From Patescibacteria group bacterium (lineage in GTDB: Bacteria > Patescibacteriota > Patescibacteriia > Magasanikbacterales > GWA2-37-8): a DNA stretch of 64,000 nucleotides. Made by a program: the position numbers and the translations under genes. The stretch covers positions 343,296 to 407,295 of the forward strand of contig JAKLGL010000001.1 in assembly GCA_022710645.1 (NCBI GenBank). The letters are read 5' to 3'. The notes beneath the pieces were generated by a model, which did not search any database, had not been told where the DNA came from, and saw only the letters and a list, made by a program, of their open reading frames with translations. Of this stretch, positions 11,606 through 53,539 are shown in pieces. Numbering within the stretch: the stretch's first letter is position 1; every line of letters begins with the position of its first letter.

Positions 11606-11660
11606 AATTAGCTAATAAGCTTGTAAGCAATAAAGCTGTAAAGCTAAAATAAAACAAACA

Positions 11661-11691
11661 AAAAAATTTCGCTGATTAAGCGAAATTTTTT
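11661..11691. terminator. bidirectional intrinsic terminator (rnj / hypothetical paralog A1)
   Basis: aatttcgc-tgattaa-gcgaaatt flanked by A-run and T-run. Confidence 0.6.
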
Positions 11692-11707
11692 AAATAAACA
11701 ATTCTAT

Positions 11708-12406
11708 TTAATTTTCCACATTTTCTTCTTGTTCTTTAAATTCTTTTTCTGTTAAGATTCTGCCAAGATAATTTACTTTATTTTCTCGTAAATTATTTAT
11801 GAATTTAGAAAATTCTACGCCCTTATCAAAAGCTTCTGCTATATTTATAATATTTCGTTCACTTTCAGCTGTGTAATAATTACCAACCTGAACAAACTCT
11901 TTAGGAGAAAGATACACTTTTAAACTACCGGAATTTTCCATACCATCAAAAATATCTTTCTTTTCCTCGTGCCATTCAATAAAAGGAGTGAAAGTTTTTT
12001 CTTCTTCCTTAGTAATAACTTTCTGCTCTTCAGCTAAAAGAGGTAACCCAGTATTCAAATCTTGTCTACTTGTAAATTCATCTTTAAATTTAATTATATT
12101 ACTGATTATTTCAATAGACTTTTTACTTAAATCTTCATCCTGTACATCTCTAATTCCAGTACGAAAACATGGCAATTCCAACTTTTCTGCTAATTTTGCA
12201 ATTTTAATTAATTTATCTTTGGTATTTTTATCTAATTCACCACTATTTTTAACAAAATTATCTTTTCCTTTATAGAATTCGTCTTCCAAAGGTTCGTCTT
12301 TTTCAAATAAATTTTGCATTTCTTTTGTAAACTGTTTTAATAGTTCTTTTGTAACTTTTTCTTCTACTTGGTTTTGTAATTCTGGATTATGTCCTTTTTC
12401 TCCCAT
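11708..12406 (-). CDS. hypothetical acidic Lys/Glu-rich protein, paralog A1 (no recognisable domain)
   Basis: 232 aa; roughly 60 percent identical to the ORF at 13449..14171 (shared blocks LIKIAKLAEKL.LPCFRTGIRD, SGSLKVY.SPK, EFSKFINNLR..KVNY.GRILT.KEFKEQEE). Confidence 0.6.
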   Translation of the reverse strand: MGEKGHNPELQNQVEEKVTKELLKQFTKEMQNLFEKDEPLEDEFYKGKDNFVKNSGELDKNTKDKLIKIAKLAEKLELPCFRTGIRDVQDEDLSKKSIEIISNIIKFKDEFTSRQDLNTGLPLLAEEQKVITKEEEKTFTPFIEWHEEKKDIFDGMENSGSLKVYLSPKEFVQVGNYYTAESERNIINIAEAFDKGVEFSKFINNLRENKVNYLGRILTEKEFKEQEENVEN

Positions 12407-12440
12407 ATATTTAAAGTTAAATTAATTAATAACACCCTAT

Positions 12441-12471
12441 ATTCTACCCCCCCCCTATAACTTTTTGTCAA
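12441..12471 (-). promoter_or_regulatory. promoter of paralog A1: TTGACA-19-TAGAAT with a C9/G9 homopolymer in the spacer
   Basis: minus strand reads cgatttcgTTTGACAaaaagttataGGGGGGGGGTAGAATatag; -35 lies within the conserved box ctttttgtcaaacgaaatcg. Confidence 0.5.
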
Positions 12472-12562
12472 ACGAAATCGGTCTTCGGACTACAGGTTAC
12501 TGCCATTCCCGCAAATCCGCCGGTTGACGGAAGGAATTCCGTAACCAATAAATTACACTAAC

Positions 12563-13248: not shown

Positions 13249-13270
13249 CGAAATCGGTCTTCAAGTTACT

Positions 13271-13376
13271 GTCATTCTGATCCGCCTCAGGCGGAGAAAA
13301 ACCTGCCTGCCGGCAGGCAGGTCTGCAATAAGCAATTATTTTACTTGCAGATCCTTCGTCTACGACTCAGGATGAC
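13271..13376. repeat. MITE-like palindromic element copy A (TIR GTCATTCTGA / TCAGGATGAC)
   Basis: 106 bp; terminal inverted repeats; internal palindromes ccgcctcaggcgg and cctgcctgccggcaggcagg; same family at 14264, 44562, 45306. Confidence 0.7.
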
Positions 13377-13395
13377 AAAAACACCTAAAACAAAT

Positions 13396-13433
13396 AAAAA
13401 ACTTCGTCCACCAACTGGCGGACGAAGTTTTTT
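13396..13433 (-). terminator. intrinsic terminator downstream of paralog A2
   Basis: cttcgtcc-(10 nt loop)-ggacgaag + T-run. Confidence 0.5.
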
Positions 13434-13448
13434 AATACACAAATCTTT

Positions 13449-14171
13449 TTAATTTTTTACTTTTTCTTCTTGTTCTTTAAATTCTTTATCTGTTAAAATT
13501 CTGCCAAAATAATTTACTTTAGTTGCTCGTAAATTATTTATAAACTTAGAAAATTCTACATCTTGATTCAACATCTCTGCTATATTTATAGTTTCCTGAT
13601 GACTTTCGGATATGTAATAATCACCAACTTGGATAATATCTTTGGGAGAAAAATACACTTTTAAACTACCTGACTCTTCCATATATCCACCGAGAGCATC
13701 TACGTCTTCTTTGTTCCATTCAATAAAAGGAATAAAAGATCTTTCTTCTTCATTAACAATGACTTCCTGTTCTTTCAATGAAATAGGAAATCCTTCTGAA
13801 TCTTGTCTGTTTGTAAATTCATTTTTAAATTTAATTTTATCATTAATTACTTCAATAGAATTTTTACTTAAATCTTCATCTCGTCTATCTCTGATTCCAG
13901 TACGAAAACATGGCAATCCTAACTTTTCCGCTAATTTTGCAATTTTAATTAATTTATCTTTGGCATTTTTATCTAATTTACCATCATTTTTAACAAGATC
14001 ATTTTCTCCTTGATAAAATTCGTCTGCCAAAGGTTCTTCCTCTTCAAAAAAACTTTGCATTTCTTCTGCAAGCTGTTTTAATAATTCTTTTTTTCTTTCC
14101 TCTTCTCTTTTAGAATCAATTTCTTTTTCCGTAGCTTTCCCTGGCTCAAAACCTGGTTTTCTCTCTACCAT
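13449..14171 (-). CDS. hypothetical acidic Lys/Glu-rich protein, paralog A2
   Basis: 240 aa; paralog of 11708..12406. Confidence 0.6.
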   Translation of the reverse strand: MVERKPGFEPGKATEKEIDSKREEERKKELLKQLAEEMQSFFEEEEPLADEFYQGENDLVKNDGKLDKNAKDKLIKIAKLAEKLGLPCFRTGIRDRRDEDLSKNSIEVINDKIKFKNEFTNRQDSEGFPISLKEQEVIVNEEERSFIPFIEWNKEDVDALGGYMEESGSLKVYFSPKDIIQVGDYYISESHQETINIAEMLNQDVEFSKFINNLRATKVNYFGRILTDKEFKEQEEKVKN

Positions 14172-14209
14172 ATATTTAAAGTTAAATTAGTTATTTAATA
14201 ATATCCTAT

Positions 14210-14240
14210 ATTCTACCCCCCCCCATTTACTTTTTGTCAA
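14210..14240 (-). promoter_or_regulatory. promoter of paralog A2: TTGACA-19-TAGAAT with C9/G9 spacer tract
   Basis: Same architecture as 12441..12471; C-run at 14216..14224. Confidence 0.5.
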
Positions 14241-14263
14241 ACGAAATCGAGCATTTAATTATG

Positions 14264-14352
14264 GTCATCCTGAGTGAAACGAAGGATCTCTTAAACAGTG
14301 CTTTGGAAAATAAGTTTAACTATAAGGGATTCTTCGCTGCGCTCAGAATGAC
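14264..14352. repeat. MITE-like palindromic element copy B
   Basis: 89 bp; gtcatcctgag...gctcagaatgac termini; internal cgaaggatc / gattcttcg blocks shared with other copies. Confidence 0.65.
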
Positions 14353-14375
14353 ACGTGGGCACGCTCTAAAACAAC

Positions 14376-14405
14376 AAAAACACCCATTGTCGGGTGTTTT
14401 TGTTA
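14376..14405 (-). terminator. intrinsic terminator at the 3' end of the putative RNase P RNA
   Basis: minus strand AAAAACACCC-GACAAU-GGGUGUUUUUGUU. Confidence 0.55.
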
Positions 14406-14411
14406 TATTTT

Positions 14412-15210
14412 CATCCAAAGCTATAAGCCGAATTTCGTCTGTCCGTTGTCTAGTAAAAGACACTGGAGAGATGGTCATTTATCTGGTCGGACACATCGCT
14501 GTGCCGATCTTTGCGAGCTAACTTTCTGAATTCCGACAAGTCGGAAAACATTGCTCTTGCGCCAGGCAGGGTTTGGCACGTCTTTGGCATTACTGCCAAT
14601 CGAGTATGATAGCCCATATATAAGACTTTCACACACTTTTCACCTTTGGCGAGGAAAATTTAATTTTCCGAGTCAATCCCGCCCTTCTTTGTTCCTAATG
14701 TATTCCCTAATCTATCTTTAACCTTTCTCCAAGCTCCACCATATTGTTTTAGAGCTTTTTCTCTATCAAGAGCATCTTGTTTATCAGCAAAAGCTTCATA
14801 ATAGATCAATTTCCAAGGTTTATATTGCTTTGTATAATCAGTACTTCCTGAGTTATGCTCATCAAGTCTTTTATCAGGACTGTGCTGAGTAAAGCCAATA
14901 TAAATTTTATTTGAAAATTGTAAACTTTGGAGAATGTAAATGAAATACATAATACTAAGAACAACGAAGGGCGGGATAACTCGCTGCTTGCGCAGCTCGT
15001 TAGTATAGTCTCTGTGCCACTTTCCCTTTTGCATTGTTACCAATGCAACGGCGGGTATTACCCGCTACCCCTTACCTTGCAAGTAAACGAGACCTCTGTT
15101 TACCAAGAAAAACTTGATTTACAGCCTGTCTATAATTGTTTACTTGATAGAGGCGTTCGGACTTTCCTCTCTAGTCGTATTCCGACTGGAGCGACCATCC
15201 GCTTTGAACC
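14412..15210 (-). ncRNA. rnpB: putative RNase P RNA (bacterial type) carrying a roughly 270-nt insertion in a peripheral helix
   Basis: Minus strand. P4 5' strand GAGGAAAGUCCGAAC (rc of 15154..15166) and P4 3' strand ACAGACGAAAUUCGGCUUAU (rc of about 14422..14441) covary as in E. coli (GGG/CCC replaced by GAA/UUC, bulged U kept). P1 is UCAAAGC/GCUUUGG. GNRA hairpins present; AGAUAAAUGAC resembles the P18-region AGAUGAAUGAC. Consensus promoter TTGACA-17-TACACT (15216..15244) puts the TSS at the P1 start. Terminator hairpin at 14376..14405. Confidence 0.55.
14660..14950 (-). CDS. GIY-YIG nuclease superfamily protein (YhbQ/UPF0213-like), nested inside the putative RNase P RNA
   Basis: MYFIYILQS...KIYIGFTQHSPDKRLDEHNSG...WKLIYYEAFADKQDALDREKALKQYGG matches the GIY/YIG/R/E core of the YhbQ family; start chosen at the Met that aligns with family N-termini. 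Longer ORF to 15043 rejected. Confidence 0.6.
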   Translation of the reverse strand: MYFIYILQSLQFSNKIYIGFTQHSPDKRLDEHNSGSTDYTKQYKPWKLIYYEAFADKQDALDREKALKQYGGAWRKVKDRLGNTLGTKKGGIDSEN

Positions 15211-34687: not shown

Positions 34688-34788
34688 CTTTATCTCCTTT
34701 TAAATAAATTGGTAACGAACTGCTTAAAAATTAACATGGTCAAACAAAAAAGTCAATAATAAAACCCCGCCAAAACAGGGTTATTGGT

Positions 34789-34859
34789 GTCATTCCCGCG
34801 AAGGCGGGAATCCAGTGGCTATCTTAATTTTCCTGGATCCCCGCCTTCGCGGGGATGAC
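34789..34859. repeat. palindromic element with 20-bp terminal inverted repeats gtcattcccgcgaaggcggg / cccgccttcgcggggatgac (variant of the GTCATYC family)
   Basis: perfect 20-bp TIRs seen directly; followed by a partial copy gtcattctaaaatcatcaatctaaaatc also present at 45412..45440. Confidence 0.65.
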
Positions 34860-34887
34860 AGTTGGAGGTTTTGTCATTCTAAAATCA

Positions 34888-36288
34888 TCAATCTAAAATC
34901 CTTTCGCCCTTCAATATCCATTTCTCTGCAAAGTTTATTTTCACTTTTACAAACTGTCCGATCATTTTTTTATTTCCCAAAAACTGTACCATTTTCATTT
35001 CATTGCTATTACCAGTACAAACCCCATCTTTGAATTCATCCACCAACACCTCCACTGTTTGTCCCAAATACTTTTGATTTTTACGCAAAACTATTTCTTC
35101 CATCAAATCCTGCAAGACGCGCCAACGGCGTTTTTTTTCAGTAATTTCCACATCATCTTTATAAATTTTCGCCGCTACCGTTCCACTGCGCTGACTATAC
35201 ATCGCCAAATAAGCGATATCAAAATCGCATTGTTTGTACAAATCCACTGTTTGTTCAAATTGTTTTTTATTTTCACTACAAAATCCAACGATGATATCCG
35301 TACCAATGGCGATACCCGGAACTTCCGCGCGAATTTTTTTCACCAAATTTATAAATTCTTCGCGTGTATATTTACGATTCATTTTTTTGAGGATCTCATC
35401 GTCTCCCGCTTGCACCGGTAAATGAAGGTAGTTAACCATTTTAGGCAAGCTTAGAGCTTTGATTTGATAATCATCAAAATATTGCGGATCGGGAGCGGTA
35501 TAAAAAATACGAAAATCTCCGGGTATATTATTTATTTCCCAAAGTAAAGCACCAAAATCAGAATACTTTAATTTTTCAGTTTTTGAAAGCGGCGGATAGA
35601 AAGGATTTTTCTTATTATAATTTTCCGGATCAGGCGCGCGATAATTATTTACCACTTGACCGAGCAAAGTGATTTCTTTGGTGCCATTTTTTACCGCTTT
35701 TTTAATTTCTACCAAAATTTCTTTTATCGGTCTGTTTTTTTCTCTACCGCGGGCGTAAGGCACCACGCAATATGAACAAAAATTATTACAACCGATTTGA
35801 ATAGTGATAGAAGCTTTATAATCCAAATCTCTTTTGGGATCTATATTCCAATATTCCCCCACTTCTTCAAAATTTATCTTGAACCAACCAGGTCGAAGTT
35901 CACGCAACCAAACTGGCAATCTTGGTAAATCAATAATCGGAAAAAATAAATCCGCGCTGGGAATTTTTTTTCGCAAACGTCCATCTTGGTCTCGTCCGGG
36001 CATACAACCGGTCACAGCAAAAACCAGTTCCGGTTTTTGATTTTTCAATTTCAAAATTTTTCTGTTTATCCCGCTGGTTCTGTCTTCCGCCATTTGACGC
36101 ACACTACAAGTATTTACCAACACCAAATCCGCTTTTTCCAGAACAGTTGTTTCTTTCATCCCCAAAGACGTCAAAAGCGCCCCAGCGCGTTCTGAGTCGT
36201 TTTTATTCATCTGACAGCCGAAAGTGACTATGTGATACTTCTTAGTCATATTTAAGGCCATTTTAAACGTTTTGAGCGGGTTTAGCAA
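34888..36288 (-). CDS. miaB: tRNA-i6A37 methylthiotransferase
   Basis: UPF0004 N-domain YHIVTFGCQMN, radical-SAM CNNFCSYCVVPYARG, TRAM C-terminus. Confidence 0.85.
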   Translation of the reverse strand: MLNPLKTFKMALNMTKKYHIVTFGCQMNKNDSERAGALLTSLGMKETTVLEKADLVLVNTCSVRQMAEDRTSGINRKILKLKNQKPELVFAVTGCMPGRDQDGRLRKKIPSADLFFPIIDLPRLPVWLRELRPGWFKINFEEVGEYWNIDPKRDLDYKASITIQIGCNNFCSYCVVPYARGREKNRPIKEILVEIKKAVKNGTKEITLLGQVVNNYRAPDPENYNKKNPFYPPLSKTEKLKYSDFGALLWEINNIPGDFRIFYTAPDPQYFDDYQIKALSLPKMVNYLHLPVQAGDDEILKKMNRKYTREEFINLVKKIRAEVPGIAIGTDIIVGFCSENKKQFEQTVDLYKQCDFDIAYLAMYSQRSGTVAAKIYKDDVEITEKKRRWRVLQDLMEEIVLRKNQKYLGQTVEVLVDEFKDGVCTGNSNEMKMVQFLGNKKMIGQFVKVKINFAEKWILKGERILD

Positions 36289-40326: not shown

Positions 40327-40578
40327 GGTGTTTCCTCCAAAAAAGATGATAACTAACGTTTATTTGAAAAAGAACATCAAATCTACAGCTGCAGAATTGA
40401 CTGCTTATCTTAATAAAAAAACGGTCTTTTGTCAAGTATTTTCATATATTGACAATGAGACAATGATATTTTCCTATTTTAGCCAAAATATGCTATAATA
40501 TCTTTGTTCCAAAAAAATACGATTTTTGTATTTTTGGACTTTATAAACTTTATAACTTTACAAACTTTATAAACTTTT

Positions 40579-43254: not shown

Positions 43255-43389
43255 CGCTGTTTTAAAAAAAATGGTATACTATAATTAAGAAATTTTCAAT
43301 TTACAATTTTCATTGAATTTTTAATAAACTAATTTTCAATGTCTTACTTTATAACTTTATAACTTTAAGAACTTTATAAACTAAACACT

Positions 43390-44538
43390 ATGTACGCTCA
43401 TCGTCTCTCTACCAAACCGGCTCATGAACCGCCGGTAAAGACTTATCGCGTCATTGCCTTCTCTTTTCTGGCTTTGACCGTAGTGTTGTTAACTATCGTG
43501 ATTTTTTCCGCTTTGAAAAAGACCGAAATTACCGTTATTGCCAAAGAAGATAAAAAAACTATCAATCTCGCGGTTAGTGCAGCCAAAGAAAAAGCCGGCG
43601 AAAAATCTTTATCCGCGATAGTTACTACTACCAAATTTTACTTTAGTGAAAATTATTCTCCGACCGGAGCCAAAACCGTAGAGGGGCTATCCAAAGGCGA
43701 AGTAACCGTTTATAACAAAACCAACGAATTGGTGACACTGGTGAAAACCACCAGGTTATTATCCCCCAATAATGTTTTATTTCGCTTGAGCGATCGTATC
43801 AACATCCCGGCTCAAGGGAAAATAACAGCCAAAGTTTATGCTGATCAAGGCGGAGCAAGTAGTGATATCGGTCCGACTTCTTTCACGATTCCCGGTTTAT
43901 CAACTGAAAAACAAAAATCGGTTTATGCGGAAAGCGCACAGCCGATGGCTGGCGGCTCTGGTAAAATAGGCATTGTTTCCGAAAGCGATATTTCTTCCGC
44001 CAAAAATGATTTTAAAGAAAAAGTTAGACAAGCATATCTCAAACAAATCAAAGAAACCGAAATTTGGGCTGATTTAAAAATAGTCAGTATTTCAGATAGT
44101 GAATCTGTTTCTTCTCATAAAGTCGGCGATGAAGCCGGAAATTTCTCTTTAACCGGCACTTCTACGGTTGTCGCGGTATTTTTGGCCAAAAAAGATCTTG
44201 AAGAATTATTAAACAAAGAAATAGGAAAAACAGTTGATAATAACTCGGAAAAAATATTATCCTTTTCCGGAGAACCTGTTATCAGCATAGCTTCAACCGA
44301 TCTTACAAAACAATCCGCAGAATTAAACGTTTCTCAAGAAACTTTGGTAACTCTAAACGTTGACGCTCAAAGTTTGGCAAAAACAAACTTTGCCGGCAAA
44401 GATAAAAGTGAAATAGAAAGATATGTCGTGAGTTTACCACACGTCACCGGAGTCAATGTAAAGTTCTCCCCTTCTTGGAGTGATACTGCGCCAAGTTCTC
44501 CGGATAAGATTAAGGTTGTGGTGAAGAATGTGAAATAA
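43390..44538 (+). CDS. hypothetical membrane-anchored extracytoplasmic protein
   Basis: 382 aa; one N-terminal TM (VIAFSFLALTVVLLTIVIF) then beta-rich domain. Confidence 0.5.
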   Translation: MYAHRLSTKPAHEPPVKTYRVIAFSFLALTVVLLTIVIFSALKKTEITVIAKEDKKTINLAVSAAKEKAGEKSLSAIVTTTKFYFSENYSPTGAKTVEGLSKGEVTVYNKTNELVTLVKTTRLLSPNNVLFRLSDRINIPAQGKITAKVYADQGGASSDIGPTSFTIPGLSTEKQKSVYAESAQPMAGGSGKIGIVSESDISSAKNDFKEKVRQAYLKQIKETEIWADLKIVSISDSESVSSHKVGDEAGNFSLTGTSTVVAVFLAKKDLEELLNKEIGKTVDNNSEKILSFSGEPVISIASTDLTKQSAELNVSQETLVTLNVDAQSLAKTNFAGKDKSEIERYVVSLPHVTGVNVKFSPSWSDTAPSSPDKIKVVVKNVK

Positions 44539-44561
44539 AAATTTTAAAATTTACTTCAACT

Positions 44562-44644
44562 GTCATCCTGAATGTAATGAAGGATCTGCAAAAAAGATTA
44601 TTGCTTATTACAGATTCTTCTCCGCCTAGGCGGATCAGAATGAC
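44562..44644. repeat. MITE-like palindromic element copy C (inverted orientation, lacks the internal 20-bp palindrome)
   Basis: gtcatcctgaatg...ccgcctaggcggatcagaatgac; reverse complement aligns with copy A end to end except for the CCTGCC...GGCAGG core. Confidence 0.65.
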
Positions 44645-44728
44645 AAATAAAAAACTCGATCGTAATTGATCGAGTTTTTGTTTAAAAAAACGACGGACCC
44701 GCAGGTCCGCCTATAGCTTTGACGAAAT

Positions 44729-45157: not shown

Positions 45158-45305
45158 AAAAATTATTAAAATTTAAAGAACTGTAACTAACTAACAGCAA
45201 ATTATAGCACATTTTCGCACTTTTGTCAAGGGGTAAATTTGGCTATTATGAGGCAAAGTATAAAATAAAAAACCGCCCTTGCGAGCGATTTTAGTTATTT
45301 TATTT

Positions 45306-45407
45306 GTCATTCTGAGGAGCTTAGCGACGAAGAACCTGCCTGCCGGCAGGCAGGTCTGTAAAAAGCAATAATTCTGTTTACAGATCCTTCACTGCGTTCA
45401 GGATGAC
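45306..45407. repeat. MITE-like palindromic element copy D (contains the cctgcctgccggcaggcagg core)
   Basis: gtcattctgagg...aacctgcctgccggcaggcaggtctg...gttcaggatgac, 102 bp. Confidence 0.7.
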
Positions 45408-45432
45408 AAATTGTTTCGTCATTCTAAAATCT

Positions 45433-47310
45433 TCAATCTAAAATACTTTTTATTTCCTCTTGTTCAATCGTTTCTTTCTCCATCAAAACCGCTACCATCT
45501 TTTCTAAACTTTCTTTTTTACTTTCCAAAATATCTTTGGCTCTTTTTTCCGCTTCAGTCAAAAGTTTGGAAACTTCTTCATCTATTCTTTCCGCGGTTTT
45601 ATCGCTGTAATCTTGTTGTTCATGAATTTCTTTACCCAAGAAAATCATTTCTTCATGTTCACCGAAAGTACGAGGTCCTAGTGGACTCATACCATAACGC
45701 ACCACCATATCACGAGCTACTCTAGTGGCATTTTTGAGATCAGACGAAGGACCGGTGGAAACATTATTTTCTCCATAAATCATTTTTTCCACTACATAAC
45801 CGCCGAGCATCATCGCTAATTCGTCTTTGAATTGAGAAAGAGTGTAATAGTGTTTATCTTCAGACGGCATCTTGAGAGTATAACCTCCGGCTTGACCGCG
45901 AGAAATGATAGATACTTTGCGAACTTGATCGCAATCAGGTAAAACATGTCCGACTATGGCGTGTCCGGCTTCATGATAAGCAGTCATCTTTTTTTCTTTT
46001 TCACTGATAACTCTGCTTTTACGTTCCGGTCCGAGCATGACTTTTTCAATACTTTCCAGAATTTCCGTTTCATTAATTTTTTTCAAATTACGACGCACAG
46101 TCAAAATAGCGGCTTCGTTGAGTAAGCTTTCCAAATCCGCGCCGGAAAATCCCGGGGTGCGTTCCGCAATTTTACGAAGCGAAACTTCTTTGGTAATCGG
46201 TTTATTCTTGGCGTGAATCTTGAGAATTTCTTCACGGTCTTTGATGTCCGGCATTGTCAAAACAACTCGACGGTCAAAACGTCCGGGACGAAGAAGAGCT
46301 GGATCCAAAACATCGGGACGATTGGTAGCAGCCATCACTATAACCCCGCTATTTGGTTCAAAACCATCCATTTCCACCAAAATTTGATTGAGGGTTTGTT
46401 CACGTTCATCATGACCTCCGCCAAGCCCTGTCCCGCGTCTACGACCCACAGCATCAATCTCATCGATAAATACGATGGCTGGAGCGGATTTCTTGGCTTT
46501 GGAAAACAAATCACGCACACGGGAAGCACCAACACCCACAAACATCTCTACAAATTCCGATCCGGACATGTGAAAAAACGGAACATTAGCTTCACCGGCC
46601 ACGGATTTGGCCAATAATGTTTTACCAGTTCCGGGAGACCCCATGAGTAATACGCCTTTGGGAATTTTGGCGCCCATATCGGAAAACTTTTTCGGACTTT
46701 TGAGAAATTCCACGATTTCTTGCAATTCTTCTTTGGCTTCATTGGCACCGGCCACATCGGAAAATGTTTTACGGTTTTTATCTTTTGGATTAACCATACG
46801 GGCACTACTTTGACCGAAACCCATCGCTTTGTTATTTGCCCCTTGGACTCCACGAGTCATAAAATAGAAGAAAGCTATAATTATCAAAAGTGGCAATAAA
46901 ATCGGCATGATAAAATTGATAAACCAAAATTTAGCAGAGCTTTCATCTCCTATTTCAACAGCTAAATTTTTTCTGGCTTCCTCGTTAACACCATAATTTT
47001 TCAAAATATCACCAAATGATTCTCCTGATTCTTTCTTGACTTCTTGCGGTTTGGCGTTGGTGTCATTTAACTCTATTTTCAACAAATCGCCTTGCACTGT
47101 CACTTTTTTCACAGCTCCGGCGTTGATTTCTTCTACCAAGCGACCGATTCCCACAGTCTCGGGTTTTTTATCTTCGCTTTGTTGAAAATAACTCAAAATC
47201 CCGGCTGCAAAAAGCAAACAGATAAAAATTATAATAAAATTTTTTGCAAAATCTTTCATAAATATACTTTTAAAATTAATATTCAAGTAAAGTAATTTTA
47301 CAATAAACAA
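45433..47310 (-). CDS. ftsH: ATP-dependent zinc metalloprotease FtsH
   Basis: N-terminal TMs, AAA Walker [14 protein letters not shown], zinc motif HEAGHA. Confidence 0.9.
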
Positions 47311-48550: not shown

Positions 48551-48773
48551 ATATTAAAACAAAAAAATTCGCTTATCCCTTCCGCTTTTTTCTTCACGGA
48601 TAGAGTGTTAATCTCTAAATCGGATTAACTTATTTAAATGAATTTTAAAGTATTATACACAGTTTAACTAAACTTGTCAAGAGTTGGCTAATATTAGCCA
48701 ATTTTTATATACTTTTTGCCCTTGCGGACATTTAAAAATCATGATAAAATAATGACGAATAAATTCGTCTAGT

Positions 48774-48850
48774 TTAAAGTCCATAAAGTTCATAAAGTCC
48801 ATCAAGCCGTGACTTTATAGACTTTCGACTTTACAGACTTTTAACTTTTA
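48774..48850. repeat. inverted array of 9-bp repeats (ATAAAGTCC x3, then inverted GACTTTAYA x3) in the rpsA / 48855 divergent promoter region
   Basis: taaagtccataaagttcataaagtccatcaag...gtgactttatagactttcgactttacagactttta. Confidence 0.6.
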
Positions 48851-52477: not shown

Positions 52478-53539
52478 TTATTTTTTTAACAACATCCTCA
52501 AAAACTTTATAAACCTGCCTACCGGTAGGCAGGCTTTTATAATTTTATAAACTCTATATTTTAAAGGTATTTCAAAAGTTCCGGGAGCTTTAAAATATTC
52601 TCCACCAAAACCAAGTTTAAATCTGGTCACGCCCGCATACTGATGTTTTTCGTCGTAAACCCATTCGTCGTCCGTACCTTTTACAACAGGTGCAATTCCA
52701 AAAAAATCATAATTTGCACAACCTTCTTTTTTGGCTTTATTTAAGCCAAAATCCTGTACCAAATATGGCGCCATTAAGCTACGATATTCATGGTCGGAAG
52801 CACCGTAAAGATAAGTAAATGTTTGACCAAAGCGGACAAACACGCCAGTGGCAATAGGTTTATTTTCAAAATAAATTATTACTTGTGAAACCATCTCGGA
52901 ATTTAAAACTTTTTCATAATGTTTTTTTTCATGAAGACGAAAAGCATCGCGCTCCCCTGTTCTTTTCATCAAATCCCAAAATATTTCCAAATCTTTTTTC
53001 TCTTCTACGCGTAAATCTTTTTTCTTGCTCAGTCCGATATTATATCTGGTTTTGGAATGCATGGCAGAAAGTATTTCTTCATAGCTCTTATCTAATTTTA
53101 AAATAAGAGTGTTGGAAGGGTTTACGTCTTTAACTTGAACCAATTTATGATTTTTGAATTCAGATTTTTGAATGATATTTGGTTCTATTCGCCAGAAGAC
53201 ACATTTTTTATCTTTTAAATACTGTGAAATAACATCCACGACATTGGTCATTGGGAACCTGCCTGCCGGTAGGCAAGGTTGGTCATTGGTCATTTTAATA
53301 ACCGGCCCTTTCGGACTAAAGGCGTATTTAAAACCAAACGGCAATTTTTCATAAACGACTAAAGCTACAGCTACATGTTCATTGCCTTCAAATAAAGCCA
53401 ATTTTTCCACTTCTTTTCCTTCTGTTAATAAAATATCGCCCCAAGCAAAAGACTGTTCAAAAGGGTTAAATTCAGAAAATTGAGATAAAAAACTATCCCA
53501 TTGTTCTTTGTTTAAATTTTGTTTAATTTCTAGAGCCAT
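52478..53539 (-). CDS. FemAB-family peptidyl/aminoacyl transferase (FemX/MurM-like)
   Basis: about 353 aa from MALEIKQNL (SD aaggaaatt); FemAB-like blocks (FAWGDIL, FSPKGPV, YLYGASDHEYRSLMAPYLVQ); contains two in-frame copies of the CCTGCCTRCCGGYAGGCAGG palindrome. Confidence 0.6.
   Translation of the reverse strand: MALEIKQNLNKEQWDSFLSQFSEFNPFEQSFAWGDILLTEGKEVEKLALFEGNEHVAVALVVYEKLPFGFKYAFSPKGPVIKMTNDQPCLPAGRFPMTNVVDVISQYLKDKKCVFWRIEPNIIQKSEFKNHKLVQVKDVNPSNTLILKLDKSYEEILSAMHSKTRYNIGLSKKKDLRVEEKKDLEIFWDLMKRTGERDAFRLHEKKHYEKVLNSEMVSQVIIYFENKPIATGVFVRFGQTFTYLYGASDHEYRSLMAPYLVQDFGLNKAKKEGCANYDFFGIAPVVKGTDDEWVYDEKHQYAGVTRFKLGFGGEYFKAPGTFEIPLKYRVYKIIKACLPVGRFIKFLRMLLKK

Follow-up and report, generated by a model that had tools for sequence, protein, structure and literature searches.

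The closest described counterparts of the repeats reported here are the NTS hairpins of Neisseria, which Chenal et al. (2025) defined as CGTCATTCCCGCGMAVGCGGGAATCYRG, accompanied by a degenerate search pattern (the SRM pattern) for Ssn-related motifs (PMC11893778). The corresponding proteins form the Ssn family (94-aa GIY-YIG proteins, CDD cd10448), whose members recognize and bind the hairpin in single-stranded DNA alone and cleave a few nucleotides upstream of it. The cleavage has been demonstrated for Neisseria SsnA on NTS; NTS made of RNA is not bound by this enzyme (PMC11893778). The key determinants of recognition are the three nucleotides located 5′ of the stem and a C following the palindrome; the loop is dispensable (PMC11893778). 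Membership of the family has been defined by gene arrangement, i.e. a small GIY-YIG gene flanked by NTS hairpins, and an Ssn homologue is the rule mainly in genomes containing more than 200 motifs (81% of such genomes). The same paper also compares its motifs with REP/REPIN-type elements (PMC11893778).

We analyzed a stretch of 64,000 nucleotides (hereafter the window; G+C content of 36.5%) originating from a MAG of Candidatus Magasanikbacteria, a member of the candidate phyla radiation (CPR). It contains a family of short repeats, most of them with GTCATYCTGA termini (CTGA-type). The best overall explanation of these repeats is that they are probably gene-less inverted doublets of the Ssn-related hairpin motif (NTS/SRM class). 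Their ends resemble those of the Neisseria system in being hairpins of 24–32 nt with (i) a 5′ (C/T)GTC, (ii) a stem base of the ATTC../..GAAT type, (iii) a C after the stem and (iv) a tolerant loop. In addition, the repeats are intergenic, are present in multiple copies and, in other genomes, cluster around a gene for a single-domain GIY-YIG protein of 90–105 aa. They differ in that four of the five doublets have T-GA / GA-A tandem mismatches and a GNA mini-hairpin at the place where NTS has its GC stem. Moreover, the copies in the window are discrete doublets with defined boundaries, their host is a CPR bacterium, and the window lacks the nuclease gene.

There is also a likeness to the intergenic mosaics of Neisseria (dRS3/RS), in which variable inner modules are bounded by inverted repeats of the ATTCCC-N8-GGGAAT type. 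The left end of one of the doublets described below (doublet E) is an exact dRS3. The window copies, however, are isolated small doublets, mostly of the CTGA type, whereas the Neisseria elements form long mosaics.

Inverted doublets and their location in the window

The sequence GTCATYCTGA occurs eight times in the window, in four inverted pairs, compared with 0.09 expected from shuffled sequences. The positions of these pairs agree exactly with those given in the initial annotation, which had described four palindromic copies with 10-bp terminal inverted repeats. Such repeats are present, but the ends in fact reach one base further outwards, to TGTCAT...ATGACA, and extend inwards to approximately 25 nt each. 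In total, the window contains five inverted doublets (A–E), one decayed solo hairpin and two copies of a "head" module, as listed below (T-type and C-type refer to the base at the Y position).

Approximately 12502–12545, plus strand: decayed solo hairpin, GCCATTCCCGC...GGAATTC; no significant fold
13270–13377, no strand: doublet A, 108 bp; single-stranded DNA fold of −25.5 kcal/mol, z −5.45
Left end of doublet A: T-type, GTCATTCTGA plus a TCCGCCTCAGGCGGA hairpin plus GAAAAACC; 3′ arm broken by the palindrome
Interior of doublet A: 20-bp palindrome at 13302–13321, then an AT-rich hairpin at 13322–13351
13350–13376, minus strand: right end of doublet A, C-type
14264–14352, no strand: doublet B, 89 bp; ends GTCATCCTGAGTGAAACGAAGGATC (plus strand) and GTCATTCTGAGCGCAGCGAAGAATC (minus strand)
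34788–34860, no strand: doublet E, 73 bp, canonical NTS type; ends TGTCATTCCCGCGAAGGCGGGAATCCAG (plus strand) and TGTCATCCCCGCGAAGGCGGGGATCCAG (minus strand)
34873–34899, plus strand: "head" module, GTCATTCTAAAATCATCAATCTAAAAT; read on the minus strand, it ends a miaB-like gene (last codons I-L-D, then the stop)
44561–44645, inverted relative to A: doublet C, 85 bp; collinear with A minus the 20-bp palindrome
45305–45408, no strand: doublet D, 104 bp; T-type end with the inner variant GGAGCTTAGCGAC, followed by the palindrome at 45335–45354
45418–45444, plus strand: second copy of the "head" module; provides I-L-D and the stop codon of ftsH

Doublets A and D and the reverse complement of C can be aligned end to end, and C lacks exactly the 20-bp palindrome CCTGCCTGCCGGCAGGCAGG, in agreement with the earlier observation that the inverted copy C equals A without its core. 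The interchangeable inner modules proposed at that time were confirmed. The interior of B is unrelated to A, C and D, and B has only its two ends in common with them. The inner variant GGAGCTTAGCGAC of doublet D was found again in loci outside the window. Doublet E had been listed as a variant (34789–34859) with 20-bp inverted repeats; the variant is real, but its arms are longer (28 nt) and are 93% complementary. A scan of the window for generic hairpins consisting of GTC, a stem and C recovered the eight intact ends, with the remainder at chance level (14 found vs. 4.3 in shuffles), and it revealed no further copies above chance.

The "head" module (27 nt), which starts with GTCATTCT, is a true two-copy repeat (0 expected by chance). 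Its first copy had been located correctly at 34873, but the second GTCATTCT starts at 45418 and not, as annotated, at 45412. No copy of the module was found in any other locus examined. Two relatives, selected by their FtsH, were used for orthologous comparisons (L375, with 89% FtsH identity, and L376, with 87%); in both of them FtsH ends with I-L-G, which is followed by a different 3′ region. In the window, the two copies of the module terminate two unrelated genes, and each is situated 9–12 nt from a doublet (E and D, respectively).

The perfect 20-bp palindrome CCTGCCTGCCGGCAGGCAGG behaves as an insertion module in its own right. In the window it is located at 13302–13321, 45335–45354, 52514–52533 and 53258–53277. 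In A and D it separates GAAGAA from TC within one hairpin arm, and it is absent from the collinear doublet C. A FemAB-family gene carries more copies, at its 3′ end and, in frame, in its interior, the in-frame copy being flanked by the direct repeat TTGGTCATTGG. Three copies were also identified in another CPR contig (L393; positions 2494, 2725 and 3036).

The earlier statement that the copies occupy 3′ intergenic spaces, often beside intrinsic terminators, was confirmed. Doublets C, D and E are each placed between a stop codon and an intrinsic terminator: (i) C between the stop codon at 44538 of a 382-aa gene (43390–44538) and the terminator at 44650–44679, (ii) D between the stop codon (45433) and the terminator (45292–45269, minus strand) of ftsH, and (iii) E between the stop codon of the miaB-like gene (34888) and the terminator at 34782–34763. 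Doublets A and B are situated 17–20 nt past a terminator, upstream of the next promoter. The distance to a terminator hairpin is 4–20 nt in all five cases.

A 95-aa ORF (14234–14521, plus strand) runs straight through doublet B (..VILSETKDL....FAALRMT..). An AAGC-rich repeat, GCTAATAAGCTTGTAAGCAATAAAGCTGTAAAGC, is found directly after the stop codons and before the terminators of several genes of this lineage, at 11607–11645 in the window and just after ftsH in L375 and L376. Several intergenic spacers contain arrays of the short units GACTTTAYA / GTAGTCT (1594–1724, 40521–40575, 43353–43382 and 48771–48842 in the window, and approximately 2900–3000 in L376), and in L376 these arrays surround a solo hairpin.

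The spacers that harbour doublets A and B and the decayed copy are paralogous and belong to a tandem gene duplication. The decayed copy is situated in a terminator-promoter spacer that has been duplicated in tandem, where it follows the GGTTACT junction that also precedes A. This location would be expected if the copies had arisen when one intergenic spacer was locally duplicated in tandem, a possibility that had been raised in the initial annotation. The inner sequences of these copies nevertheless differ, doublets C, D and E are found at unrelated loci and are not explained by the duplication, and the same hairpin has a pan-bacterial distribution (see below). The probability of such an origin is negligible. 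The duplication itself (11684–12480 / 13425–14249; spacing of 1741 bp, 72–90% identity) comprises a gene without known function (232 and 240 aa) and the promoter box TTGACA..TAGAAT. In a related genome (L004) the corresponding interval contains only an 86-aa ORF.

Structure of the ends and their relation to NTS

The ends are built according to a common plan: (T)GTC, AT(T/C)C, T, GA, a variable inner hairpin, GA, A, G(A/G)AT and C. GTC is conserved in 10/10 ends in the window, and a C directly follows the stem in 8/8 intact ends. The Y and R positions pair within their own end in all eight intact ends, and the two ends of each doublet differ at the Y position, one being T-type and the other C-type (5/5 doublets). 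Among 147 matches in genomes, the free Y/R positions pair in 142 (79 C-G and 63 T-A) and the unconstrained inner positions in 143 and 144, with double changes from G-C to A-T included; compensatory changes inside the ends were also present in a set of contigs classed as viral. Since compensation occurs within the ends, and the ends of a doublet are mismatched with each other at Y, selection maintains the hairpin of each individual end and not end-to-end pairing. The functional unit is each self-folding end, not the terminal inverted repeat. The combination of one T-type with one C-type end, which holds for all five doublets of the window, was also considered as a general rule and was rejected, because it occurs at chance frequency elsewhere (40 mixed, 21 CC and 14 TT).

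The inner part of the hairpin is freely replaceable among ends. It is flanked by T-GA-G / C-GA-A, which suits the pyrimidine-GA-purine context in which tandem sheared G·A pairs form in DNA. Five of the inner segments are short (GTCGTAGAC, GTGAAAC, GCGCAGC, ATGTAAT and ACGCAGT); they all conform to N1 N2 G N A N2′ N1′ and include compensatory double changes. The other ends contain a longer GC stem (TCCGCCTCAGGCGGA) or GGAGCTTAGCGAC. GCGNAGC is an extraordinarily stable DNA mini-hairpin, which is poorly bound by SSB and whose RNA counterpart is much weaker (PMC13037366). Nearest-neighbour DNA folding assigns no significant stability to the short ends alone, and the argument for their stability is based on the published chemistry of GA motifs rather than on such folding. 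The ends of doublet E fold at −8.9 and −9.7 kcal/mol (z −4.6), and the whole elements fold strongly (z −2.9 to −8.7).

At the RNA level, the only Rfam matches at threshold in the window were two tRNAs; those obtained at the elements were far below threshold, even with permissive E-values. A likeness to the hammerhead ribozyme core or to a kink-turn, noticed by eye, was dropped since the conserved core positions do not fit. The doublets might nevertheless act in RNA, as REP-like 3′-UTR stem-loops stabilizing mRNA or aiding termination, with the connection to a nuclease being secondary. Although C, D and E are transcribed as 3′ UTRs and every doublet combines a strong whole-element fold with close proximity to a terminator hairpin, A and B are placed past terminators and both orientations occur. 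Moreover, the conserved inner motif is stable as DNA and much less so as RNA (PMC13037366), no Rfam family is matched, and SsnA does not bind NTS in its RNA form (PMC11893778). Such a role, which would leave both the conserved unpaired GTC and C and the linkage to nuclease genes unexplained, seems unlikely to us.

Returning to the Ssn-related reading, the left end of doublet E was found to be an NTS with one mismatch and its other end an NTS with three mismatches; both match the SRM pattern. None of the CTGA-type ends (0/8) matches this pattern, but they retain GTC, the ATYC/GRAT stem base and the 3′ C. In a full-text literature search, the NTS string led to the Ssn paper (PMC11893778), and no paper was found for the CTGA-type strings. 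Judging by these sequence features, four of the doublets can be assigned to a CTGA-type subtype that falls outside the published search pattern, and E to canonical NTS.

The family is not peculiar to one small genome: the same 25-nt hairpin occurs in more than 15 phyla. Scans of sequence collections, which give lower bounds for non-random samples, yielded at least 120 loci with the CTGA hairpin in species-representative genomes (pattern with a free inner stem) and at least 120 stretches in contigs labelled as viral by the collection itself (strict 25-nt pattern, with a chance expectation that we estimate to be essentially zero). The genomes represent Paceibacterota, Saccharibacteria, Gracilibacteria, Chloroflexota, Acidobacteriota, Bacteroidota, Clostridia, Nitrospirota, Planctomycetota, Omnitrophota, Gemmatimonadota, Verrucomicrobiota, several Proteobacteria and others. 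Among the close arrangements in the genome loci listed, convergent doublets (54, with sizes of 54–260 bp) predominate over divergent (13) and tandem (10) ones. Solo hairpins are also common, both in these loci and in the viral-classed ones. Many of the viral-classed matches (L013–L132) are related phage-like contigs, with a G+C content of approximately 58% and with large structural genes in common.

GIY-YIG genes and the hairpins

Of 120 hairpin-selected genome loci, four were found to contain a small GIY-YIG gene with hairpins at a distance of 100 bp or less on both sides:

L138 (Saccharibacteria): hairpin-flanked GIY-YIG gene
L163 (Gracilibacteria): hairpin-flanked GIY-YIG gene
L148 (Cyclobacteriaceae): hairpin-flanked GIY-YIG gene
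L238: hairpin-flanked GIY-YIG gene

The flanked proteins have the common pattern YVYI..LYIGVTNN..EH..GFTAKY..REKxIKGWxRxKKxxLIxxxNPxWxDL. At least 1896 relatives of the L138 protein were found; the best 120 listed are 67–100% identical to it, and those with a named source come from several phyla. Three homologues were chosen only for their long contigs, and all three are bracketed by hairpin doublets, in 8-kb loci in which hairpins are otherwise rare. A scan for canonical NTS revealed, in five of 120 NTS-selected loci, NTS directly flanking GIY-YIG genes, whose products score 90–100 bits against the profile derived from the CTGA-flanked proteins. The statistics of gene association are based on small numbers of loci (4/120, 3/3 and 5/120). 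Being homologous, the NTS-flanked and CTGA-flanked GIY-YIG proteins constitute one family by the operational definition of PMC11893778. The CTGA-flanked proteins are predicted to be of the Ssn type, on the strength of their homology to the products of NTS-flanked genes. NCBIfam and PDB searches with the GIY-YIG proteins were of no help in this respect, as they gave only weak UPF0213/SLX1 matches and did not discriminate between clades.

Many copies of the hairpin are placed far from any nuclease gene, since none of the 120 viral-classed loci carrying CTGA hairpins contains an Ssn-type gene. No nuclease gene recurs near the hairpin in these contigs, which have in common only the structural genes of related phages. 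No strong match to the profile of flanked GIY-YIG proteins was obtained in 676 kb of FtsH-selected CPR loci, and the 64-kb window also lacks an Ssn-type gene. The copies in the window must therefore either depend on a nuclease gene located in another part of the genome or be orphans. The cognate transposase suggested in the initial annotation (IS200/IS605 TnpA or an IS630-type enzyme) was not encountered either; the Pfam hits of the genes called in window positions 1–54538 include no transposase of these or other types.

There is a single nuclease candidate in the window:

14660–14950, minus strand: GIY-YIG ORF, 96 aa, 300 bp from doublet B

This ORF was rejected as the cognate nuclease, because it belongs to another clade, has relatives that are free of hairpins and is nested in an RNase P RNA. 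It scores 39 bits against the profile of flanked proteins, compared with 90–160 bits for true members, lacks the tail IKxWxRxxKxxLIxxxNPxWxDL and carries the pattern EHNSG...KPWKLIYYE. Its relatives follow tRNA genes, and no hairpins adjoin them in the seven loci inspected (L008, L011, L403, L422, L436, L440 and L441), the last five of which were taken in as GIY-YIG matches with similarly low profile scores. The ORF is contained in an insertion of approximately 390 nt in the P12 loop of a class A RNase P RNA (14408–15210, minus strand), detected as a full-length match to Rfam RF00010 with a score (84.7 bits, E 6e-26) below the gathering score. The insertion is closed by a stem of approximately 20 bp, the 3′ arm of which is the C-terminal coding sequence of the ORF itself. 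The arrangement of RNase P RNA and ORF is conserved, with 92% identity, in a second genome (L004, 5792–6601). A paper on RNase P RNAs of CPR bacteria mentions long helix extensions and no ORF (PMC8172020).

Mobility of the doublets and a possible mechanism

The initial annotation had proposed a search for empty sites in related genomes. Comparison of the window with L375 and L376 revealed orthologous sites that are empty, filled or differently filled. The spacer between the stop codon and the terminator of ftsH is empty in L375, contains a doublet of a third subtype in L376 (TGTCATTGCGAG...CTCGCAATGACA) and is occupied by doublet D and the "head" module in the window. Just past the ftsH terminator, L375 and L376 have an NTS-type doublet in common, and this site is empty in the window. 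In L376, the orthologue of the 382-aa gene is followed by a different, solo hairpin at the position that doublet C occupies in the window. A copy of doublet E is present in L375 at a non-orthologous site, between the S1 gene and ftsH, which corresponds to a 52-bp spacer in the window. The two copies are 98.6% identical over 74 bp, the limits of the identity coinciding exactly with TGTCAT and ATGACA, whereas orthologous genes of L375 and the window are only 83–85% identical at the DNA level. A near-identical copy with exact boundaries at a non-orthologous site indicates that the doublets move as units extending from TGTCAT to ATGACA. Together with the differences between orthologous sites, it identifies the doublets as discrete units that have moved recently.

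No target-site duplication accompanies these units. Direct repeats of 2–8 nt flanking 89 non-redundant doublets were not found above the level of shuffled sequences, and none of the five doublets of the window (5/5) is flanked by a duplication. No parent IS with a transposase and the same termini was identified (Pfam hits, window 1–54538); the genes found among these termini encode GIY-YIG proteins.

The elements had been termed MITE-like, and as classical MITEs they would be deletion derivatives of an IS, moved by a DDE transposase acting on the terminal inverted repeats. They do share several features with prokaryotic MITEs: terminal inverted repeats (10–25 bp), a small size (70–110 bp), the presence of several copies, a non-coding character and insertion polymorphism. 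They are distinguished from them by the absence of target-site duplications, both in the window and in the 89 doublets from elsewhere, and of a DDE parent. In addition, their ends are separate hairpins, which are abundant in solo form and show covariation within and not between ends, and no transposase was detected (window 1–54538). We consider a MITE origin highly improbable. The earlier view of an active or recently active non-autonomous family holds insofar as the elements are multi-copy, non-coding units with inverted ends that have moved, but not as regards a MITE-like mechanism, given the independent hairpin ends.

Inverted hairpin doublets, a lack of target-site duplications and terminator-side sites are typical of REP/REPIN and IS200/IS605 biology. 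The doublets could accordingly be of the REPIN-like kind, with mobility provided by a tyrosine HUH transposase (RAYT or IS200/IS605 TnpA) that recognizes hairpins in single-stranded DNA. The parallel with REP/REPIN-RAYT systems includes, besides the non-autonomous inverted doublets of short hairpins, their clustering around the gene of a protein thought to act on the repeats. The protein in question is, however, a GIY-YIG hydrolase and not a Y1 HUH enzyme; GIY-YIG genes are the only ones repeatedly embedded among the hairpins, and no HUH gene was detected among the Pfam hits (window 1–54538). The 5′ motif is GTC and not the GTAG of REP, and the same hairpin sequence is found across phyla, whereas REP sequences are species-specific. 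The involvement of an HUH transposase is, in our opinion, improbable.

With regard to their present state, the Ssn-related doublets may be orphan relics that are idle in this host, the nuclease being absent from the genome, and that arrived by recombination or past activity and have persisted in neutral spacers beside terminators. We regard this as possible but somewhat doubtful. While the window lacks an Ssn-type ORF, contains only about 10 ends in 64 kb (a nuclease homologue being usual mainly in genomes with more than 200 motifs; PMC11893778) and includes one decayed copy as well as one end each of A and D damaged by insertion of the palindrome, eight of the ten ends are intact, with compensated stems. 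Furthermore, the near-identity of doublet E to a copy in a diverged relative indicates recent movement, and with it a system that is active somewhere in the lineage.

Ssn-type GIY-YIG nucleases and hairpin doublets may together constitute an unrecognized class of mobile element that exploits single-stranded DNA, of which the doublets in the window would be the non-autonomous form. Such a class, which we put forward only tentatively, would be defined by TGTCAT...ATGACA boundaries, the absence of target-site duplications and a preference for terminator-adjacent spacers, and it would be active across phyla, CPR bacteria and phages included. In the reading of the elements as Ssn-related doublets, which we favour, each end would fold into a compact, GA-rich DNA hairpin whenever the DNA becomes single-stranded (during replication, uptake or conjugation, or in a single-stranded DNA phage). 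A nuclease of the Ssn family would then bind the folded end and nick the DNA a few nucleotides 5′ of it, as Neisseria SsnA does on NTS. In a convergent doublet, either strand, once exposed, would carry one hairpin that can be cleaved, and the two cuts would fall just outside the element. The doublets might spread as passengers of units consisting of an ssn gene placed among such hairpins, by way of single-stranded DNA or recombination rather than through a DDE transposase. Strand transfer is not supplied by a GIY-YIG hydrolase alone, and cutting by itself leaves reinsertion unexplained.

The first description of Ssn nucleases, which concerned Neisseria and a few relatives, dates only from 2025. 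The assignments made here would extend the Ssn hairpin system to CPR bacteria and to viral-classed contigs, and would add to it a second, very widespread type of hairpin (GTCATYCTGA-GCGNAGC-GAAGRATC), which has been overlooked by the published pattern. The hairpins travel as discrete doublets, which close relatives have gained, lost or exchanged at the same spacers, and they account for a class of spurious small ORFs in automatic annotation, such as that at 14234–14521. Concrete substrates (e.g. GTCATYCTGAGCGNAGCGAAGRATC) and proteins are now at hand for studies of Ssn specificity, and these bear directly on the idea that transposon-like elements may be driven by a GIY-YIG nuclease.
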